This document shows, in pieces, positions 28,422 to 35,349 of a DNA stretch of 64,000 nucleotides; positions within the stretch are counted from its first letter, which is position 1; each line of letters opens with the position of its first letter. The notes under the pieces are model-generated. The model did not search any database and was not told the origin of the DNA. It saw nothing but the letters and a program-made list of their open reading frames with translations. The stretch is from Thermodesulfovibrionales bacterium (GTDB taxonomy: Bacteria; Nitrospirota; Thermodesulfovibrionia; Thermodesulfovibrionales; UBA1546): NCBI GenBank assembly GCA_049302185.1, contig JBAQLV010000027.1, positions 3,584-67,583 of the forward strand, written 5' to 3'. Position numbers and translations under genes: made by a program.

Positions 28422-30500
28422 ATGACTCAGAACACAATTCAACTTTCATCTGTTCTTCTGGAAATAGGAACAGAAGACATCCCTGCAAGGTTTCTGCCAT
28501 CTGCCATACGGCAACTAAAAGAAAACACAGAGACAATATTCAAAGATAATCATATAAGGTTTTCAGAAGTAAAAACATTGGGCTCTCCGCGGAGACTTGC
28601 AGTGATTGCACATGGAATCCCGCCGATGCAGGAAGACAAAGTAAAAGAAATATTCGGGCCCTCTAAAAAAGCAGCTTTTGATGCGGACGGCAGTCCTACA
28701 AAAGCAGCAACTGGATTTGCCAATTCTCAAGGCATAAGCGTGGAAAAACTCATCGTAAAAAATAAAGACAAAGGAGAATACGTTGTTGCAGTCATAGAAG
28801 AAAAAGGCATTCATGTCAGAGAACTCCTGCCTGACATACTCAAAAAGATTGTGCTTTCAGTGCATCTTCCGAAATCAATGAGATGGGGCGGCAATGACAT
28901 GAGATTTATACGGCCTATCAGATGGCTGCTGTCTCTGTTTGATAACGAAACAATAAGTTTTGAGATAGAAGGAATAAAAAGCAGCAATATGACCCGTGGG
29001 CACAGATTCCTGTCTCCTGCCGCTTTTCAGATAAAAGAAATACCGGCTTACGCAAAGCTGCTTGCAAATAACCACGTCATAGTTGACTCTCAGGAAAGAA
29101 GAAGGATTATAACAGAAAAAGCGGAGAAGCTCTCGTCTTCCATAAACGGGAAAATACTAAAAGACGAAGAACTCATTGAGACAGTCTCGAATCTCGTAGA
29201 ATATCCTGTTCCGGTACTCGGCAGTTTCTCACCAGAATATCTCAGACTTCCTAAAGAACTGCTTATAACAGTAATGAGAGAACATCAGAAATACTTTGCA
29301 ATTGAAGATATTAAAGGCGTGCTCACGAATTACTTTATCATTATAAGCAACACCGCTGAAGAAAATTCAGAGACTGTCAAGATTGGAGCGGAACGCGTTA
29401 TCAGAGCAAGATTTGAGGATGCAAAATTCTATTTTGAAGAAGACTGCAGGAAAAAACTTGAAGACAGAATAAGCGGACTTAAAAAAGTGGTGTATCAGGA
29501 AAAACTCGGGAACCTCTACGAGAAGGTATTGCGAGTCAAAAACCTTGCGTCATATCTTGCGTCAAAAATAAATGCCTCTCTAACGCAAAAGGCCGAAAGA
29601 GCAGCGCTTCTCTCCAAGACAGACCTCCTGACAGGAGTCGTAAGGGAATTCCCTGAACTTCAGGGAATTATTGGAAAATACTATGCGAGCAATGACAAGG
29701 AAGACACAGAAGTCGCAGCCGCTTTGATGGAACAGTATCTGCCTGCCTATTACGGAGACAGGCTGCCTGAAACAGAGACAGGCGCTATTCTCAGCCTTGC
29801 AGACAAGCTGGATAATATAACCTCATTCTTCTCTGTCGGCCTTACTCCGACAGGCTCTGAAGACCCTTTTGCATTAAGGAGACAGACGCTTGCAGTCATA
29901 GCAATACTGCTGAATAAGGGCTATGCATTATCGCTCAATGATCTTGTTGCCGCTTCTCTGAAAAATCTGAAAGACACTAAACAGTCCGGAGAAATTGCAG
30001 CAACAGCGCTCAGATTTTTTGAACAGAGGCTTGAGCCTTTGTTGTCATCGCAAGGTTATAACTCCGATGAGATTCAATCTATCCTTTCGTTTTCTGCAAA
30101 GATACCTCTCAGTGAGATAAAAAAGAGACTGGATGCTCTTAAGGAATTTAAGACCACCGCAGGTTATAATGAGTTTATTACAGCCATAAAACGAGTAAGA
30201 AATATTATTCCTGAAACAGCGCTTCCCACATGGATTCCGAGACTGTTTGTGAAAGATCCTGAGAAAAAACTCTGCGAGATATTCTCAGCTATAAAAACCG
30301 AAGTTGGAAGCCTGATGGATGGACATAAATATTCCGAAGCGCTCAGTATTCTCTCAGGACTGACAGCACCGATAAATTATTTCTTTGACAATATACTAGT
30401 AATGGACAAACAGGAAAAAATCAAACTCAACAGGCTTGCGCTTCTGGAATATATCTGGACGCTCGCATCATCAATAGCGGATTTTTCAAAACTGCAGTAA
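28422..30500 (+). CDS. glyS: Glycine--tRNA ligase beta subunit
   Basis: 692 aa. [15 protein letters not shown]...PRRLAV is the GlyS N-terminal signature. A C-terminal anticodon-binding (DALR-like) region is present. Confidence 0.95.
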
Positions 30501-30701
30501 AGATTTGCCGCGGATTATTCTCAGCACATCAGAAACTTTTTCGGAGTAACAACCGCTTTTGGCTGCAAATCTTGAAAGATTCTCTACGGAAGCCTCATTG
30601 TCAACAAGAATCTCAACTATCCCTTCGGTTATTTTGGAAACTGCATCTTCAGCCATCATAACAGGCTTCGGGCATCCAAGACCTCTCGCATCAATGAGCA
30701 T
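30486..30701 (-). CDS. TusA/SirA-family sulfurtransferase-like protein
   Basis: [21 protein letters not shown] carries the CPxP active-site motif at the canonical position. 71 aa. Confidence 0.8.
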
Positions 30702-30807: not shown

Positions 30808-31719
30808 TTATCTAATATTTGAAACATTCGGATTCCTTTCTGAAATGAGATCAGATGCTTCCTTTGAATTTATGACTTCATTTAATGCACGCGGGATATT
30901 CTCAATTATTTCAACAACCTGAGTTTCCGGTGTCGGATTTGCATAGTACCCAGCCAGCCTGTTTATTTGAGTCGCAGCAATTGCTGCCCTATCAATAGCC
31001 ATTCCTGAGGCAATAAGGGCAGAGACTATACCTGTCAGCGTATCGCCAGTACCTCCGATAGGCTCAAGAGCCTCTACTATAGGATAGTCAATAACTGCAA
31101 TGATGCCATTTTTGTCAGCTATATAGTCTTTATTTCCTTTTACCATGAGATAGCGTGAAGCGTTTTCATATGCATAAGCCCTTTTTATCAAATCAGGAAC
31201 TCTGTTTTCCTCTTGGAGGATAAACCCTCTCGTATAGAATGGGTGAGGCGCTTCTTCATCGGCAATGAAGGCCATCTCGCCAGCATCAGGTGTGAAAAGG
31301 TCAAATCTCTGTGCCTGTCCGCTCATCTTTGCCACATACATGCCGCCTGCATCAGCCACGAGAATTGGACTGTACGGAAGGTCTTCTAAAGCAAACATGA
31401 CCTGATTAAATCCATCCACCTCGGGCAACATATAATGAAAGACGATTGCCTTAAAATTAACATTCTTCAGATTTTCTGCTAAATACTTATAAAGCCTTTT
31501 ACTTCCATCTCCGCGACCAATATCTCCTGCAAGATAACCAGAAGGCAGTGGTAGTTTTAAGACCTCCAACACCTTTATGGCTGAGGCTATCAATGCCGGT
31601 GTCCCCCTGTTTATGTCAATTTTATTGCCCTCAATAAAGACATTCTCATCCTCTAATCTTAGTTCTCCTGCAACTAATGGGAAGTCCTTATCCGGGATTG
31701 TGCCGACTATTGCTAACAT
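30808..31719 (-). CDS. Ribokinase-superfamily protein resembling the YjeF C-terminal (NAD(P)HX dehydratase-like) domain; function unknown
   Basis: The C-terminal EPIGGTGDTLTGIVSALIASGM resembles the GGxGDvLtG nucleotide-binding motif of YjeF_C carbohydrate-kinase domains. The remainder was not recognised. Confidence 0.4.
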   Translation of the reverse strand: MLAIVGTIPDKDFPLVAGELRLEDENVFIEGNKIDINRGTPALIASAIKVLEVLKLPLPSGYLAGDIGRGDGSKRLYKYLAENLKNVNFKAIVFHYMLPEVDGFNQVMFALEDLPYSPILVADAGGMYVAKMSGQAQRFDLFTPDAGEMAFIADEEAPHPFYTRGFILQEENRVPDLIKRAYAYENASRYLMVKGNKDYIADKNGIIAVIDYPIVEALEPIGGTGDTLTGIVSALIASGMAIDRAAIAATQINRLAGYYANPTPETQVVEIIENIPRALNEVINSKEASDLISERNPNVSNIR

Positions 31720-32255
31720 CTACGACATGCCTCCTCATAGGCCAACTGTAAGGCATAACCACAGAGGGTATGCCCTATATCCCTTGGGCTTACTACGTCT
31801 TTTAAGGTCTTTCCCAGCATCTCTTTAGCCAAATAGGGCACATCAGGGCATCCACCACCTGATATATTCACTACAGTAAGGGTCTCCTTGTCAAAGGTCA
31901 ATTTCATGTTTGCTGCCCTCACCATGAGGTATCTTCCAAAATCCTTTATGTGGAAGAGGTCAACAGGCCTCAAGAGAGGACTGCTTACAGGTACTATTTG
32001 TAATGGGGGAATTCTGGCCTCTGTGAGTATCCTCTGTATGTTCATCGACTCGATAAGGGGAAATTCTACCACCATATCACAGCCTGTTCTGATCTCTGGT
32101 GGGGGACCCATGACCCTGATATCAAATCCCCTGTCTTTGAGAATAGTCTCTGCCCTGATCACCTCGCTGGTGTTGGCAAATATGAGAAATCCCCTGCTCC
32201 GATTCTTCTCTTTTAGCGGGATCCTCTTTTTTTTGAATATTTTAAGGATAGACAT
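31713..32255 (-). CDS. DUF3343-like (putative Se/S carrier-like) protein with a Cys-containing C-terminal extension
   Basis: The N-terminal half FLIFANTSEVIRAETILKDRGFDIRVMGPPPEIRTGCDMVV matches the DUF3343 pattern. The C-terminal half has GGGCPDVPYL and a terminal CRRC. Confidence 0.55.
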   Translation of the reverse strand: MSILKIFKKKRIPLKEKNRSRGFLIFANTSEVIRAETILKDRGFDIRVMGPPPEIRTGCDMVVEFPLIESMNIQRILTEARIPPLQIVPVSSPLLRPVDLFHIKDFGRYLMVRAANMKLTFDKETLTVVNISGGGCPDVPYLAKEMLGKTLKDVVSPRDIGHTLCGYALQLAYEEACRRC

Positions 32256-32484: not shown

Positions 32485-33576
32485 TTATATTGCCTTCTTT
32501 CTCATTGTGAATCCTATGAACAAACAAACCGCAAGACCAACTATTACTGCCGTAATACCATGAGGTCCGATACCCTGCGGAGAGCTGGCAAGTCCAAAGT
32601 TATGGGAAAAAGCAGCGCCAATGATCATTCCCAGCACAAATACAGCAGCATCTCCGTCTCCTTCACCTGACAAAAATAACTGTCTTCCCGGGCATCCTCC
32701 TGCGAGGGTAAAGGCAAGTCCAGCCAAGACCATACCCATAAAGTTCCAGGCGCTCATGGTATGCGCTATTGGTTGATTTACAAAGCCTGGATTAAACTGA
32801 CCCAGGATCAGATTTGTCACAAATGCCGCAATGGCAAGGCCTGCAATCCCCAAGAACAGATGGGTTTGACGAAATAGTATCAAGTCCCTTAAAGCGCCCA
32901 TGGTGCAGAACCGGCTTCTCTGAGCAATAAACCCTATGACAAGACCTGCTGATAGGGATATAAAGAGGGGTGCATGCATTGACCCTGGTCCTTTAACACT
33001 GTAAAAGAGGATACCACTCTTATTTTCACCATAAATCTCCGGATAGATAAGCATGAGCAATAAGAAACCTAACATGACCAAAGGCAATATCCACCCCGAA
33101 GAAGTATGTGTGGGCTGCGTCCTCCCAAGGTTATAACCTGCTTTCAGAAAACGGGCGCCTACAAAGACTCCTGTGATAAGTCCTAACAAACCGAAAATGG
33201 CATTTCCATCCCCTCCTGCAAGGCGGAGCAATGTCCTCCATGGACAGCCGAGAAATACGAGTGCGCCTATCATTGCAAATACGCCAAGAACAAACCTCAC
33301 AATGGGGGCTGAACCAGCCCTTGGGCGAAACTCTTTGAAAAGATATGCTGCAACGAGGGAACCGAGGACAAAACCAATGATCTCTGGTCTCATGTATTGA
33401 ACCGCTTCAGCACGGTGAAGACCTATGGCTCCGGCTATATCCCTTTCAAAACATGCCACACAGACCCCCATGTTCCCGGGATTGCCAAATTTTTGTAGGA
33501 GTGGTGCAAATATCCCGATGAACACCCCAACACCGATGATGCCCCACGAAGTAGCAAAAAAGTTCTTAATCGACAT
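32485..33576 (-). CDS. yedE: YedE/YeeE-family putative selenium/thiosulfate transporter
   Basis: Polytopic protein. FGNPGNMGVCVACFERDIAGAIGLH and a second CPGRQL-type half-site are typical of YedE/YeeE. I prefer the start at MSIKNFF (33576). Confidence 0.8.
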   Translation of the reverse strand: MSIKNFFATSWGIIGVGVFIGIFAPLLQKFGNPGNMGVCVACFERDIAGAIGLHRAEAVQYMRPEIIGFVLGSLVAAYLFKEFRPRAGSAPIVRFVLGVFAMIGALVFLGCPWRTLLRLAGGDGNAIFGLLGLITGVFVGARFLKAGYNLGRTQPTHTSSGWILPLVMLGFLLLMLIYPEIYGENKSGILFYSVKGPGSMHAPLFISLSAGLVIGFIAQRSRFCTMGALRDLILFRQTHLFLGIAGLAIAAFVTNLILGQFNPGFVNQPIAHTMSAWNFMGMVLAGLAFTLAGGCPGRQLFLSGEGDGDAAVFVLGMIIGAAFSHNFGLASSPQGIGPHGITAVIVGLAVCLFIGFTMRKKAI

Positions 33577-33711: not shown

Positions 33712-33745
33712 AAATCCCTGTTAAGGACATCACTTAACAACCTCT

Positions 33746-33931
33746 TTAAGAACAGCCATTATCCTTTCTGCATCCGGCGACAGCTTTATTCCTTTTGGAG
33801 TGATGATGTAGAAATCCCTCATCATCTTTTAGCTCCATATCAGGCAGCCTGTTTGATATTTCCCTTGAAAGACCGGGAATAATAAATTCTCCCGGGATAG
33901 TGCTTGCTCCTATGGTGAATAGCTTTTTCAT
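33746..33931 (-). pseudogene. Relic of a LysR-type regulator (substrate-binding-domain fragments only)
   Basis: FTIGASTIPGEFIIPGLSREISNRLPDMEL parallels LIIGASTIPGTYLMPAIISSFKKKYPSV of the intact LysR at 34447-35349. A shifted frame then reads FYIITPKGIKLSPDAERIMAVLKEV, which resembles the LysR C-terminus. There is no HTH. Confidence 0.45.
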
Positions 33932-34235
33932 GTTACCTCCGGTTATATGAATTTTATTGAATATAAATTACCATGCCAAAATTCTATATATCCAATAGTT
34001 ATTTTCTATTGATTGAAATAAAGCAATAGGGTTTCTCTATATTCAAAACACCCTATAGCCGGGTCATTAAAGATAAGCAAAGCTAATCTCTTAATCATTT
34101 TGACCTCCTGGTATTTGAATTCTGCAAAAATTATGTGCACTTTAGGTTTCAAACTGAAACCTTGATTTAGCTGACTCTACATAATCTCAGTACTTGCTTA
34201 TCCATTTGCGCCTCCCATCCATCAAATAACCCTTC

Positions 34236-34340
34236 TGGAGAGGGGTAGTGGGAATTGAACCCACCACGACAGCTTCCATCAAGCTTTTTACCGTGATACT
34301 GGTTTTGCAGACCAGCAGGGGCGACAGCCCCATACCCCCC
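34236..34340 (-). tRNA. tRNA-Sec-like tRNA with Cys anticodon GCA and U73 (105 nt, CCA encoded)
   Basis: Manual fold of the reverse complement:
- acceptor GGGGGGUA / UACCCCUC, 8 bp with one G-U
- linker U
- D stem GGGGC/GCCCC with the 4-nt loop UGUC
- anticodon stem CUGGU/ACCAG with loop CU-GCA-AA
- 34-nt variable arm (CACG...CGUG and AGCUU...AAGCU helices)
- T arm GUGGG-UUCAAUU-CCCAC
- discriminator U, then CCA. Confidence 0.75.
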
Positions 34341-34446
34341 ACGCATCATATAATTTATTATAGGAAAAATAAATAAGTCAAATAGAAAATATCTATACAA
34401 AAGGGAAGATGTATAGACTGTTAGACAAGGTTACGCAGGGGAGGGT

Positions 34447-35349
34447 TTAATGGGATTTAAATGTCTTTGATTTAGTTTTGATATATTCTAAGAATATATT
34501 ATATGCAAGTGGTGATGTCCTTTTTTGATGGGTCACAATATAAAATTTCCTCTTCATCTCTATATTTGTCAGCTTTATCTCTTTGAGTATCCCATATTTT
34601 AGTTCATCCTTTACAGAGAGCCTTGATAGTATTGAGACCCCCAGTCCTTCCTTTACAGCCTGTTTTATAGCATCTGTAGAGCCAAAGATTCCTGAAATCT
34701 TGATGTCTTCAAAAGAAATGCCCCTTTCTTCTAATATCTTTTCTGTCTCCCTTCTTGTGCCAGAGCCTTCTTCACGCAAGACCATCGGGAATTTAATTAA
34801 TTCATTCAATGTTGTCCTTTCTTTTTTCAGCATGGATGGAGCGGATACGACGATTAACTCGTCTTCCATAAACGGCATATAGTGTATCTGTTCATTTCCA
34901 AGTTTTGAACCTACAATGCCAATCAGGAGTTCGTGTTTTAACACCTTTTTAATGATTTCTTCCGAGTCTGCTATGGCTATTTGGAAAAAGACAGAAGGGT
35001 ATTTTTTCTTAAATGACGATATTATTGCCGGCATAAGATATGTGCCTGGTATTGTACTTGCGCCGATAATCAGTTCGCCTGTTATTTCCTTTTTAAATTG
35101 TCCGATGACATCTTTTATGTTGTCTGCCTTTTCTGTAATCTCCATTGCATGATTATATAAGACTTCAGCTTCTTTTGTGGGCATGATTGTCCTTCCGAGC
35201 CTGTCAAACAATTTGCAGTTGAGTTCTTCCTCAAGAGATTTTACATGGTCGCTTATAGTTGGCTGTGTGAGACTCAGTTCTTCTGATGCCTTCGAAAAGC
35301 TTTTATTCTTAAAGACTGACAAAAAGACTTTTAGATGATGTATGTCCAT
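34447..35349 (-). CDS. LysR-family transcriptional regulator
   Basis: MDIHHLKVFLSVFKNKSFSKASEELSLTQPTISDHVKSLEEEL is the LysR HTH. Start taken at MDIHH (35349). Confidence 0.85.
   Translation of the reverse strand: MDIHHLKVFLSVFKNKSFSKASEELSLTQPTISDHVKSLEEELNCKLFDRLGRTIMPTKEAEVLYNHAMEITEKADNIKDVIGQFKKEITGELIIGASTIPGTYLMPAIISSFKKKYPSVFFQIAIADSEEIIKKVLKHELLIGIVGSKLGNEQIHYMPFMEDELIVVSAPSMLKKERTTLNELIKFPMVLREEGSGTRRETEKILEERGISFEDIKISGIFGSTDAIKQAVKEGLGVSILSRLSVKDELKYGILKEIKLTNIEMKRKFYIVTHQKRTSPLAYNIFLEYIKTKSKTFKSH

Follow-up and report, generated by a model that had tools for sequence, protein, structure and literature searches.

The closest described relatives of the tRNA analyzed here are the selC* tRNACys species, a rare class that was discovered through its resemblance to tRNASec in tRNASec searches and defined by Mukai 2017 (NAR), with members already recorded in Thermodesulfovibrio and Nitrospirae (PMC5389517). 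The name tRNAReC was given later by Vargas-Rodriguez 2018 (RNA Biol), a study summarized in PMC11415595 and PMC13582414. The Desulfotomaculum nigrificans member is charged by CysRS and inserts Cys at UGA+SECIS (PMC11415595, PMC13582414); SelB delivers it, UGA is read as Cys, and no interaction with EF-Tu occurs (PMC11415595). UGA+SECIS is recoded by both GCA and UCA types, and operationally the class comprises tRNAs of at least 80 nt with anticodon GCA or UCA and discriminator U (PMC13582414); the principal marks by which CysRS recognizes its tRNA are GCA and U73 (PMC5389517). Knowledge of the class goes back to 2016-2018; the gene described below adds a member to it and leaves the picture of the class itself unchanged.

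We analyzed a 64,000-nt stretch of DNA (64 kb; hereafter the window) from a sulfate-reducing Nitrospirota bacterium and confirmed within its selenium-uptake gene cluster a genuine, unannotated tRNA gene, far beyond chance expectation. A first-pass annotation had proposed a tRNA of Sec architecture with the Cys anticodon GCA and U73; we reproduced its sequence and coordinates (105 nt with the encoded CCA, minus strand, 34340..34236), and the sequence itself, the predicted fold and a match to the Rfam tRNA-Sec family bear the proposal out. The minimum-free-energy fold is a cloverleaf of -47.4 kcal/mol, and none of 200 shuffled sequences folded as well (z = -4.64). In a sensitive Rfam scan of 401 nt, RF01852 (tRNA-Sec) aligned to 34340..34240 with E = 4e-8, or roughly 7e-6 by our own rescaling to the whole window. 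RF01852 is the best Rfam family for this tRNA, its 45.4 bits lying 1.6 bits below the cut-off of 47. At the gathering threshold Rfam gave no match in the window, and ARAGORN called no tRNA over the 64 kb. Homologues score 52-60 bits with RF01852 in 11 of 12 cases, above that cut-off, and our own covariance model of the family (R1) assigns 86.8 bits (E = 4e-18) to the window tRNA and 91.2 bits to its copy in locus L086, which is 91% identical. Because ARAGORN, run locally, reports tRNA-Cys(gca) in 32 of 37 relatives, we attribute its miss of the window tRNA to the long variable arm.

Table 1. Coordinates of the tRNA gene, its structural elements and the neighboring features in the window.
Feature	Position	Strand	Evidence
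Whole tRNA gene	34236..34340	-	Fold z = -4.64; Rfam tRNA-Sec 45.4 bits; R1 86.8 bits
Acceptor stem, 5' strand GGGGGGUA, 8 nt, pairs with 34240..34247	34333..34340	-	97.6% of cells paired, 26 homologues
D arm: stem GGGGC/GCCCC, 5 bp; loop UGUC, 4 nt	34318..34331	-	Stem 96.9% paired in homologues
Anticodon arm: stem GCUGGU/ACCAGU; loop CUGCAAA	34298..34316	-	Inner 5 pairs 100% paired, with covariation
Anticodon GCA	34306..34308	-	Direct sequence reading
Variable region, 33 nt: outer helix CACGG/UCGUG, inner helix AGCUU/AAGCU	34265..34297	-	Fold and relatives
T arm GUGGG-UUCAAUU-CCCAC, 5-bp stem	34248..34264	-	100% of cells paired, 26 homologues
Discriminator U73, then encoded CCA	34236..34239	-	Direct sequence reading
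Promoter-like site TTGACT-18-TAAATT (putative)	34352..34381	-	Consensus scan, 9/12 matches
Perfect 8-nt inverted repeat TCTATACA-N10-TGTATAGA, candidate LysR-type operator (lead only)	34392..34417	.	Repeat search; just upstream of the -35 hexamer
lysR_Se, selenium-metabolism LysR regulator	34447..35349	-	NF040786, 314 bits (cut-off 250); Pfam HTH_1 and LysR_substrate
yedE, putative selenium transporter	32485..33576	-	TIGR04112, 494 bits (cut-off 200); Pfam Sulf_transp
TusA/YedF-N-type sulfur/selenium carrier, 71 aa	32258..32473	-	Pfam TusA; weak TIGR03527 match
DUF3343 (Se_S_carrier) + DUF8182 protein	31713..32255	-	Pfam PF11823; precomputed PF26554
Carb_kinase (NAD(P)HX-dehydratase-like), fourth gene of the yedE operon	30808..31719	-	Pfam PF01256, 44 bits
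Truncated YedF, TusA domain only, 71 aa	30486..30701	-	TIGR03527, N-terminal match

The predicted 8-bp acceptor, 5-bp D stem with its 4-nt loop, anticodon arm, 5-bp T arm and terminal U plus CCA all reappear in the fold and in a positional parse (Table 1). In that parse the acceptor pairs are G1:C, G2:U, G3-6:C, U:A and A:U, followed by a 1-nt linker. Only five D-stem pairs form, the sixth position being a U-U mismatch, and the anticodon stem has five solid pairs plus an outer G:U in the window copy, a sixth pair that forms in 14 of 31 homologues. The fold also recovers the two segments of the long variable arm, whose length we count as 33 nt rather than the 34 nt first given. Most of the relatives found here have a shorter variable region, of 21-26 nt; among the homologues listed, only L086, L199 and L119 share the extended arm, and their inner helices differ in sequence with pairing kept (GCCUU/AAGGU and UCCU/AGGA). 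The window D loop lacks the GG of its relatives: all 25 other sequences in the alignment keep the second G, where this copy has U. The longer variable arm and the lost D-loop GG are the two oddities of the window copy.

To assess covariation we used homologues from a metagenome pattern scan, whose pattern demanded U73 and which returned at least about 50 genuine Sec-like tRNAs with GCA, U73 and CCA. To count as genuine, a homologue had to form six or more of the eight acceptor pairs; this criterion inflates the acceptor pairing percentage but leaves the diversity of pair types unaffected. The covariation set comprised 26 sequences including the window copy in a plain MAFFT alignment, with L095, a clearly damaged homologue bearing a 5' deletion, left out. 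In this alignment 91.6% of cells are paired, compared with 77.7% for shuffles, of which none in 500 attains the observed value, and 51-58% for slid controls, and 20 of 29 pairs have changed on both sides. The first-pass annotation had singled out the eighth acceptor pair and the D stem for this check, and compensatory changes occur in both: pair 8 is AU in 14 sequences, GC in 5, CG in 2, UA in 2 and GU in 1, and GC and AU replace each other by double changes at two D-stem positions. Acceptor pair 7 varies among UA, CG, GC, AU and UG, and T-stem pair 49:65 among GC, AU and GU. Since five standard pair types are seen at pair 8 and every T-stem cell is paired, the acceptor/T helix is of the 8/5 form and measures 13 bp, the length proposed from the window copy. 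A 13-bp acceptor/T helix, as found in tRNASec, disfavors EF-Tu. Within the variable arm the window copy and L086 differ by A:U to G:U and G:U to G:C in the outer helix, with pairing kept, while a C to A change in the inner helix breaks one pair in L086. The window tRNA sequence occurs identically in four assemblies, which probably represent one population, and the Logan runs SRR22387966, SRR22387762 and SRR22387751 contain DNA identical to that of this contig.

At 105 nt, with GCA, U73, a 33-nt variable arm, an 8-bp acceptor, resemblance to the tRNA-Sec model and a sequence alignable with L086, the window tRNA, judged by sequence and structure, belongs to the known class selC* tRNACys/tRNAReC; the comparison with the D. 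nigrificans reference is by published description. The suspicion that it might be one of the reported Sec-shaped tRNACys species was correct. It shares with the D. nigrificans tRNAReC a tRNASec-like cloverleaf, GCA, U73, a long variable arm and a host that is an anaerobe and probably uses selenium, the difference being that the reference comes from Firmicutes and the window tRNA from Nitrospirota. Compared with canonical bacterial tRNASec (RF01852), the 8/5 13-bp helix, 4-nt D loop, long variable arm and optional sixth anticodon-stem pair are alike, whereas the anticodon is GCA instead of UCA, the discriminator U instead of G, the D stem 5 instead of 6 pairs and the score below the RF01852 cut-off. 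Canonical tRNACys differs more plainly, with a 7/5 helix and a variable loop of 4-5 nt against 8/5 and 33 nt. The allo-tRNAs (8/4 or 9/3; Mukai et al. 2017), likewise encountered as false positives of tRNASec searches, have a long variable arm and a compact D arm too, but their helix is a 12-bp, EF-Tu-compatible one and their identity mostly serine, in contrast to the 13 bp and cysteine marks seen here.

Two further comparisons bear on decoding. The tRNASec(GCA) of Aeromonas salmonicida likewise combines a Sec shape with the Cys anticodon GCA; it reportedly retains serine/Sec identity with G73, in place of which the window tRNA has U73. It inserts Sec at targeted Cys codons (Mukai et al. 2016; PMC11415595). 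The first-pass alternative of a Sec-tRNA retargeted to Cys codons corresponds to this Aeromonas class and is mismatched with U73. Its other alternative, in which the Sec machinery delivers a tRNA that accepts Cys, is the supported one and fits the characterized class member except in the target codon, which is UGA+SECIS, read in spite of the GCA anticodon, and not UGC/UGU. The deltaproteobacterial selC* tRNACys(UCA) species resemble the window tRNA in Sec-like shape, 8-bp acceptor, U73 and selenium-gene neighborhood; they differ from it in having an 8/4 form whose T stem contains a bulged A, the anticodon UCA, in some cases A1:U72, and their own dedicated CysRS* (cysS*) and paralogue of SelB (selB*) (PMC5389517). 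In the window tRNA the form is 8/5, all five T-stem pairs are present, the anticodon is GCA and the first acceptor pair is G1:C72; the 64 kb of the window contain no selB or cysS. R1 scores the published 8/4-bulge UCA type from Desulfobacterota yedE loci at 38-66 bits and GCA counterparts of that type from metagenomic loci at 66-77 bits.

The genes around the tRNA were placed correctly at first pass, with a LysR regulator upstream and YedE, TusA and DUF3343 downstream (Table 1). The regulator, lysR_Se, lies immediately upstream on the same strand, and the order LysR-then-tRNA recurs in L118, whose LysR is 59% identical. YedE of the TIGR04112 type and LysR_Sec_metab occur essentially only in selenium users (Lin 2015; PMC5322559). 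The Carb_kinase (CarbK) gene occupies the same operon position in Nitrospirota and Desulfobacterota loci, and in two relatives, L090 and L091, selD comes after the same yedE operon. Searches of the window with Rfam, with tblastn using SelB and SelD, and with Pfam on large ORFs found no selA, selB, selC, selD or cysS, and none of the window ORFs interrupted by one in-frame TGA made a credible selenoprotein gene; we therefore only infer the partner machinery (SelB, CysRS and the rest) for the organism.

Linkage to selenium genes recurs across the class. About 20 of 48 metagenomic loci among the matches listed link the tRNA to selB, selD, yedF or yedE, compared with none of 72 control loci from the same metagenome scan having selB, selD, yedF or selenium-LysR neighbors. 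Two close 8/5-type relatives (L104 and L120) have a selB gene 28-47 nt downstream of the tRNA, and other neighbors among the matches listed are selD (L113, L143), yedF (nine loci) and the selenium-type LysR (L118). R1 located a selC*(UCA) tRNA at six of the 80 yedE loci from Desulfobacterota; at one of the six the order is selC*-selB-HGD-D-BcrAD-yedE-tusA-DUF3343 on a single strand. Blastn and nhmmer searches of these 80 GTDB yedE loci with the tRNA had given no match, a result that we discarded as a false negative for the class because the covariance model found six selC*(UCA) there. The selC*-yedE gaps of L013 and L066 contain no HIGH or KMSKS motifs of a cysS*. In the literature examined we found no description of linkage between this tRNA class and lysR_Se, yedE, yedF, selD or selB.

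By homology with the characterized class member, the window tRNA, which combines a tRNASec body plan with cysteine marks, is probably charged by CysRS and delivered by SelB to place Cys at UGA+SECIS. Cysteinyl-tRNA synthetase would load cysteine on the tRNA, which would avoid EF-Tu by virtue of its 13-bp helix and pass instead to the selenocysteine elongation factor SelB. SECIS-bound SelB would then deliver it to the in-frame UGA of selenoprotein mRNAs, where Cys in place of Sec would provide a safeguard under selenium limitation. Because the long variable arm is the main mark recognized by SerRS, a dual Ser/Cys identity is conceivable, and the 33-nt arm specific to this subclade might confer a second identity or engage a second protein partner.

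Other fates of the tRNA appear less probable. The covarying 13-bp helix, of a length that disfavors EF-Tu, argues against an extra, oddly shaped but otherwise ordinary elongator tRNACys that CysRS charges and EF-Tu carries to UGC/UGU proteome-wide. Such a tRNA would have the main CysRS marks GCA and U73, as this one does (PMC5389517), ARAGORN labels the shorter homologues plain tRNA-Cys, and the homologue in L124 lies upstream of the tuf (EF-Tu) gene, as in usual tRNA clusters; yet this reading leaves the recurrent selB/selD/yedE/yedF neighborhood unexplained and conflicts with the characterized class member, for which EF-Tu interaction is lacking (PMC11415595), and we regard it as very unlikely. 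We consider it highly unlikely that the tRNA is a Sec carrier, serylated by SerRS through its variable arm, converted from Ser to Sec by SelA and taken by SelB either to UGA, like tRNAReU, or to SECIS-flanked UGC/UGU, as in Aeromonas. The D stem of bacterial tRNASec has six pairs and E. coli SerRS uses C:G at 11:24, whereas the window tRNA has five pairs and G:C. Sec-inserting derivatives studied in 2018 by Vargas-Rodriguez had reportedly lost the Cys marks, which also counts against a Sec carrier. U73 is universal in the family, though imposed by the search pattern, and published class members with U73 and GCA are cysteinylated. These points have to be set against a long variable arm, 8-bp acceptor and compact D arm, all features that SerRS and SelA use, against the serine identity that U73 with a long variable arm can suit in allo-tRNAs (PMC5389517), and against the precedent of the Aeromonas tRNASec(GCA) with Sec at Cys codons (PMC11415595).

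A decaying or non-translational window copy, for example one that acts as a regulatory RNA or serves the neighboring Se/S carrier proteins as a tRNA-shaped scaffold or substrate, is unlikely as well, although several observations point that way: the otherwise invariant D-loop GG is gone, the Rfam score falls below the cut-off where relatives reach 52-60 bits, the damaged homologue L095 with its 5' deletion exists, and regulatory roles have been raised for related irregular tRNAs (PMC5389517). The spacer adjoining the tRNA contains a decayed gene as well as an inserted segment of about 85 nt, from which we conclude that the locus is in flux. Against decay stand four intact stems, the retention of U73 and the CCA end, an R1 score near that of L086, outer variable-arm differences from L086 that preserve pairing (the one inner C to A breaks a pair in L086), and the occurrence of the identical sequence in four assemblies, though these are probably of one population. 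The D-loop change from the second G to U, together with the Rfam score just below the cut-off, indicates that the window copy may be functionally weakened.

If the window tRNA does place Cys at UGA+SECIS, its omission from annotation matters. The gene was missed by standard tools, with no ARAGORN call and an Rfam score below threshold, and since such tRNAs are missed every UGA+SECIS site in carrier genomes is annotated as selenocysteine. Where a tRNAReC is present these sites may be cysteine, which makes selenoproteome predictions for sulfate-reducing Nitrospirota ambiguous. The class has been proposed to safeguard selenoprotein production, and the linkage described above suggests that this safeguard belongs to the way cells respond when selenium is limiting. 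That the tRNA lies between the selenium-type LysR and the yedE-tusA-DUF3343 operon points to its expression within the cell's response to selenium status. A bolder version, which we put forward tentatively and think rather doubtful, is that the LysR, as an HrsM-like sensor, activates the tRNA and the YedE operon at low selenium and thereby switches UGA+SECIS from Sec to Cys; the linkage to lysR_Se, yedE, yedF, selD and selB, which recurs across Nitrospirota and Desulfobacterota, leaves room for it.

Promoter-like sites in the region do not exceed the number expected from shuffled sequence; the site listed in Table 1, if used, would give the tRNA a leader of a few nucleotides only. The inverted repeat shows no visible conservation upstream of the tRNA in L086 or L118. 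A terminator scan of the tRNA region found none, the hairpin at 34144-34162 being without a T run. Near the tRNA and yedE promoters TATAGA half-sites occur 5 times in about 580 nt, a locally suggestive density, though the motif is frequent across the AT-rich window (49 sites); we note it as a lead only. The truncated YedF gene overlaps the 3' end of the convergent glyS, and its product matches the full-length YedF of L168 (200 aa) at 89% identity over the first 54 residues of the latter.

The Sec-shaped tRNA on the minus strand is a real tRNA structure. The cloverleaf drawn in the first-pass annotation is its minimum-free-energy fold (-47.4 kcal/mol, z = -4.64), which 0 of 200 shuffles equal, and a positional parse (see table) returned the acceptor, D, anticodon and T arms, U73 and CCA end as described there, with a variable region one nucleotide shorter than the 34 nt it had given. 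ARAGORN called no tRNA anywhere in the window, and no Rfam family reached its gathering threshold at the tRNA. In a sensitive Rfam scan, the covariance-model check that the annotation had proposed, the tRNA-Sec model (RF01852) fell exactly at this tRNA with 45.4 bits (E = 4e-8 for the stretch searched), 1.6 bits short of the curated cut-off of 47.

Features of the tRNA locus and of related loci (tRNA elements by positional parse; L-numbers are comparison loci)
Feature	Position	Strand	Description
tRNA	34340..34236	minus	GGGGGGUAUGGGGCUGUCGCCCCUGCUGGUCUGCAAAACCAGUAUCACGGUAAAAAGCUUGAUGGAAGCUGUCGUGGUGGGUUCAAUUCCCACUACCCCUCUCCA
Acceptor stem		minus	8 bp, then one linker base
D arm	loop 34323-34326	minus	5-bp stem, 4-nt loop UGUC
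Anticodon stem		minus	five solid pairs and an outer G:U
Anticodon loop		minus	CUGCAAA, anticodon GCA
Variable region		minus	33 nt, two stacked helices
T arm		minus	5-bp stem, loop UUCAAUU
3' end		minus	discriminator U, encoded CCA
Gene order		minus	pdxJ, acpS, lysR, tRNA, decayed gene fragment, yedE, tusA, DUF3343(+DUF8182), Carb_kinase-like, truncated yedF
glyS	after truncated yedF	convergent	
Carb_kinase / NAD(P)HX-dehydratase-like gene	30808-31719	minus	300 aa; also L009, L013, L043, L049, L086, L089
Second TusA-type gene	30486-30701	minus	YedF cut to first 71 residues; overlaps 3' end of glyS
Gene remnant, tRNA-yedE spacer	33733-33931	minus	from 210-aa LysR-substrate-domain-only gene, no HTH
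Region upstream of remnant and yedE	33951-34059		inverted repeat, box, promoter-like site
T-N11-A-type box	34009..33995		ATAGAAAATAACTAT
Insert relative to L086	~34130-34215	minus	~85 nt
Hairpin in insert	34144-34162		perfect, 8 bp
HGD-D/BcrAD loci	L046 3705-5705		also L093, L120, L161, L162, L167
High-GC subfamily loci	L132, L169, L188		also L117, L129, L133, L146, L151, L170, L172, L204
Ordinary tRNA upstream of yedE cluster	L089 ~1000-1160	opposite	beside integrase-like fragment and assembly gap
Deleted tRNA homologue	L095 1966-2064		lacks part of acceptor 5' strand and D stem
Ser/Leu-shaped tRNAs	L182 1036-1130; L194; L155 3655-3749		long arm, Cys anticodon

The first-pass annotation had suspected a link to reported Sec-shaped tRNA-Cys species, and such a class is indeed published. 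Mukai et al. (NAR 2017; PMC5389517) found it by re-examining false positives of a tRNASec search and defined selC* tRNACys as tRNASec-like with U73 and anticodon GCA or UCA; its hosts are anaerobic Firmicutes, Thermodesulfobacteria, Nitrospirae (Thermodesulfovibrio) and Deltaproteobacteria, and every selC* isolate genome has selA, selB, selC and selD (PMC5389517). Vargas-Rodriguez et al. (RNA Biol 2018) renamed the class tRNAReC. Its member from Desulfotomaculum nigrificans reads UGA as Cys, is brought in by SelB and shows no interaction with EF-Tu (PMC11415595). Under an operational rule, members have at least 80 nt, anticodon UCA or GCA and discriminator U, and GCA and UCA types alike recode UGA given a downstream SECIS (PMC13582414). 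The window's tRNA has every one of these sequence-level features and belongs to the tRNAReC/selC* class. The class dates from 2016-2018, and this tRNA adds to it a member from an uncultured Nitrospirota bacterium rather than a new kind of tRNA. The best named relatives of the window's YedE come from Nitrospiraceae and Thermodesulfovibrionales, and DsrMK-like and NrfD genes are present; the host is accordingly a sulfate-reducing member of the Nitrospirota, a phylum already among those published.

The tRNA recurs with 100% identity in four Logan assemblies that have the window's gene order, and a 91%-identical copy lies ~140 nt upstream of a yedE 92% identical to the window's in L086-L088 (a JGI metagenome and two ENA assemblies). 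Scanning metagenome contigs for an anticodon loop, a long gap, a T loop and then UCCA gave at least 120 loci; among the matches listed, about 50 are genuine Sec-shaped tRNAs (GCA, U73, CCA) of several subfamilies. ARAGORN called tRNA-Cys(gca) for 32 of 37 Sec-shaped relatives and failed only on long-variable-arm members, which accounts for its missing the window's gene, and 11 of 12 homologues tested scored 52-60 bits with the Rfam tRNA-Sec model, over the cut-off.

We evaluated covariation in a plain MAFFT alignment (A2) of 26 sequences of the 8/5 type (acceptor and T-stem base pairs). Cells were paired in 91.6% of cases, as against 77.7% after shuffling (none of 500 shuffles as high) and 51-58% with partners slid; admitting only homologues with at least six of eight acceptor positions paired inflates the acceptor share of this figure, not the variety of pair types. 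Changes occur on both sides in 20 of 29 pairs, acceptor pair 7 appears as UA, CG, GC, AU or UG and pair 8 as AU, GC, CG, UA or GU, and the five T-stem pairs form without exception. These results show that the acceptor/T helix of 13 bp (8/5) is under selection. The first-pass annotation had proposed this helix and named compensatory change at the eighth acceptor pair as a check, and the five pair types there bear it out.

The variable region, at 33 nt, exceeds the 21-26 nt of most relatives. The extension is common to the window's tRNA, L086, L199 and L119; because the inner helices differ in sequence yet pair (AGCUU/AAGCU, GCCUU/AAGGU, UCCU/AGGA), it is a maintained feature of a subclade. In the D loop, the second G of GG is invariant in the other 25 A2 homologues and is U in the window's copy (1 of 26). 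The partner of this G in ordinary tRNAs is C56, at the elbow, and the window's tRNA could thus be weakened. The substitution probably contributes to an Rfam tRNA-Sec score below the 55.1 bits of L088.

The gene order agrees with the earlier placement of the tRNA between a LysR gene and a YedE/TusA/DUF3343 cluster. The LysR protein matches NCBIfam NF040786, 'selenium metabolism-associated LysR family transcriptional regulator' (314 bits, cut-off 250), and YedE matches TIGR04112, 'YedE family putative selenium transporter' (494 bits, cut-off 200). Lin et al. 2015 (PMC5322559) count both LysR_Se and YedE among their candidate genes for selenium utilisation and identify LysR_Se as orthologous to HrsM of archaea, a switch between Sec- and Cys-containing isoenzymes by selenium status. 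Searches of the 64 kb for Sec machinery, cysS and a plausible in-frame-TGA gene found none of the three. In Nitrospirota and Desulfobacterota alike, the Carb_kinase-like gene occupies a conserved fourth position in the yedE-tusA-DUF3343 operon (56-58% protein identity between the phyla); its product falls short of the NCBIfam cut-off set for the true dehydratase and therefore probably acts on another substrate. In place of the truncated YedF, L168 encodes a full 200-aa YedF (TIGR03527, 202 bits).

Linkage to selenium genes was surveyed in 48 genuine metagenomic loci (233 kb), with 72 false-positive loci (386 kb) from the same scan as control, both among the matches listed. A SelB gene lies immediately downstream of the tRNA in 7 of the 48; in L104 and L120, whose 8/5 GCA-type tRNAs are near the window's type, it is 47 and 28 nt away. 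selD adjoins the tRNA in two loci (L113, ordered carbK-tusA-tRNA-selD, and L143, with the tRNA 12 nt after selD), yedF or tusA is near in nine, an HGD-D/BcrAD pair is nearby in five, and one (L118) has a selenium-type LysR, 59% identical to the window's, directly upstream. The 72 control loci held no selB, selD, yedF/tusA, selenium-type LysR or HGD-D/BcrAD, only weak EF-Tu-like matches. Synteny with the window is seen in L118 (acpS-lysR-tRNA-glyS) and L168 (tRNA-yedF-glyS).

In 80 GTDB yedE loci, blastn with the tRNA found no copy, and a covariance model built from A2 (R1) found selC*-type tRNAs in six, all Desulfobacterota and all of the published kind (UCA, U73, 8/4 with a bulge). In L049 the tRNA precedes yedE, as it does in the window, at a distance of 303 nt, and L046 has the co-directional array selC*-selB-HGD-D-BcrAD-yedE-tusA-DUF3343. 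By our estimate, chance would place a single-copy gene within ~6 kb of a given gene in far fewer than 1% of few-megabase genomes; the association of selC*-type tRNAs with yedE loci is therefore real. Linkage of selC* to selB* and cysS* is already published; in the papers searched, the class was nowhere named alongside yedE. The HGD-D protein (2-hydroxyacyl-CoA-dehydratase-like, 425 aa) and BcrAD-type ATPase activator are repeatedly encoded beside Sec-like tRNACys, selB, yedF and yedE genes; Lin 2015 (PMC5322559) lists both families as YedE/YedF neighbours.

The locus thus holds a Sec-shaped tRNA whose structure is under constraint and which bears the identity marks of cysteine; it is embedded in selenium genes. 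By homology, it would most likely be charged with Cys by CysRS, its 13-bp helix excluding EF-Tu and recruiting SelB; SECIS-bound SelB would bring it to UGA, the G34-A mismatch being tolerated, and Cys would take selenocysteine's place. The gene context suggests that LysR_Se may link its expression to selenium status. Three observations contradict an ordinary, EF-Tu-dependent tRNACys: conservation of the 13-bp helix, the published result on EF-Tu, and the gene neighbourhood.

A tRNA carrying Sec through SerRS plus SelA would suit the long variable arm and compact D arm, but is disfavoured by U73, the 5-bp D stem and a G:C pair at 11:24. The D-loop change and a locus in flux suggest a decaying or non-translational RNA; against this, stems, discriminator and CCA end have all stayed intact, and changes from L086 in the outer variable-arm helix preserve pairing. 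The locus adds to the class a recurrent linkage to lysR_Se/yedE/yedF/selD/selB and a long-variable-arm subclade, and is a reminder that routine annotation misses such tRNA genes.

Upstream of the tRNA by 12 nt is a promoter-like TTGACT-18-TAAATT (consensus match), with a perfect inverted repeat, TCTATACA-N10-TGTATAGA, directly upstream of its -35 hexamer; neither is conserved in L086 or L118, and both are candidate matches that serve as leads only. The tRNA-yedE spacer contains the remains of a gene that L089-L092 still carry whole, immediately before yedE; the remnant keeps its first 34 codons (76% identical) and last 32 (62% identical, shifted frame), and ~144 middle codons are lost. The region upstream of the remnant has a 10-nt inverted repeat (GCAATAGGGT / ACCCTATAGC, 17 nt apart), the T-N11-A-type box and a promoter-like TTGGCA-17-TAAAAT, and may be a LysR operator; in L089, box and flanks recur with hardly any change ahead of the intact gene. 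The insert relative to L086 falls between the conserved trailer GAAGGGUUAUUUGAUGGAUG and a conserved segment, UUGCAGAAUUCAAAU. The arrangement in L089, a Nitrospiraceae relative without the Sec-like tRNA, suggests reshaping by mobile-element activity.

Other tRNAs were also encountered. A high-GC subfamily of Sec-like tRNA(GCA, U73), GACCGG.../...CCGGUC-U-CCA, has a D stem of 6 bp and differs in its acceptor/T split; in three loci a 2-keto-3-deoxy-galactonokinase gene precedes it by 10 nt, and no selenium genes were seen in the vicinity. Four otherwise diverged loci (L138, L140, L158, L190) share the leader GGCUAUACCUGAAU (GGCUAUGCCUGAAU in L190), the 14 nt directly before the mature 5' end, which could be a conserved promoter or processing element. 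In L095 the homologue with the deletion, apparently dead, precedes a gene for a multihaem cytochrome. The Ser/Leu-shaped tRNAs are of a kind different from Sec-shaped tRNACys.
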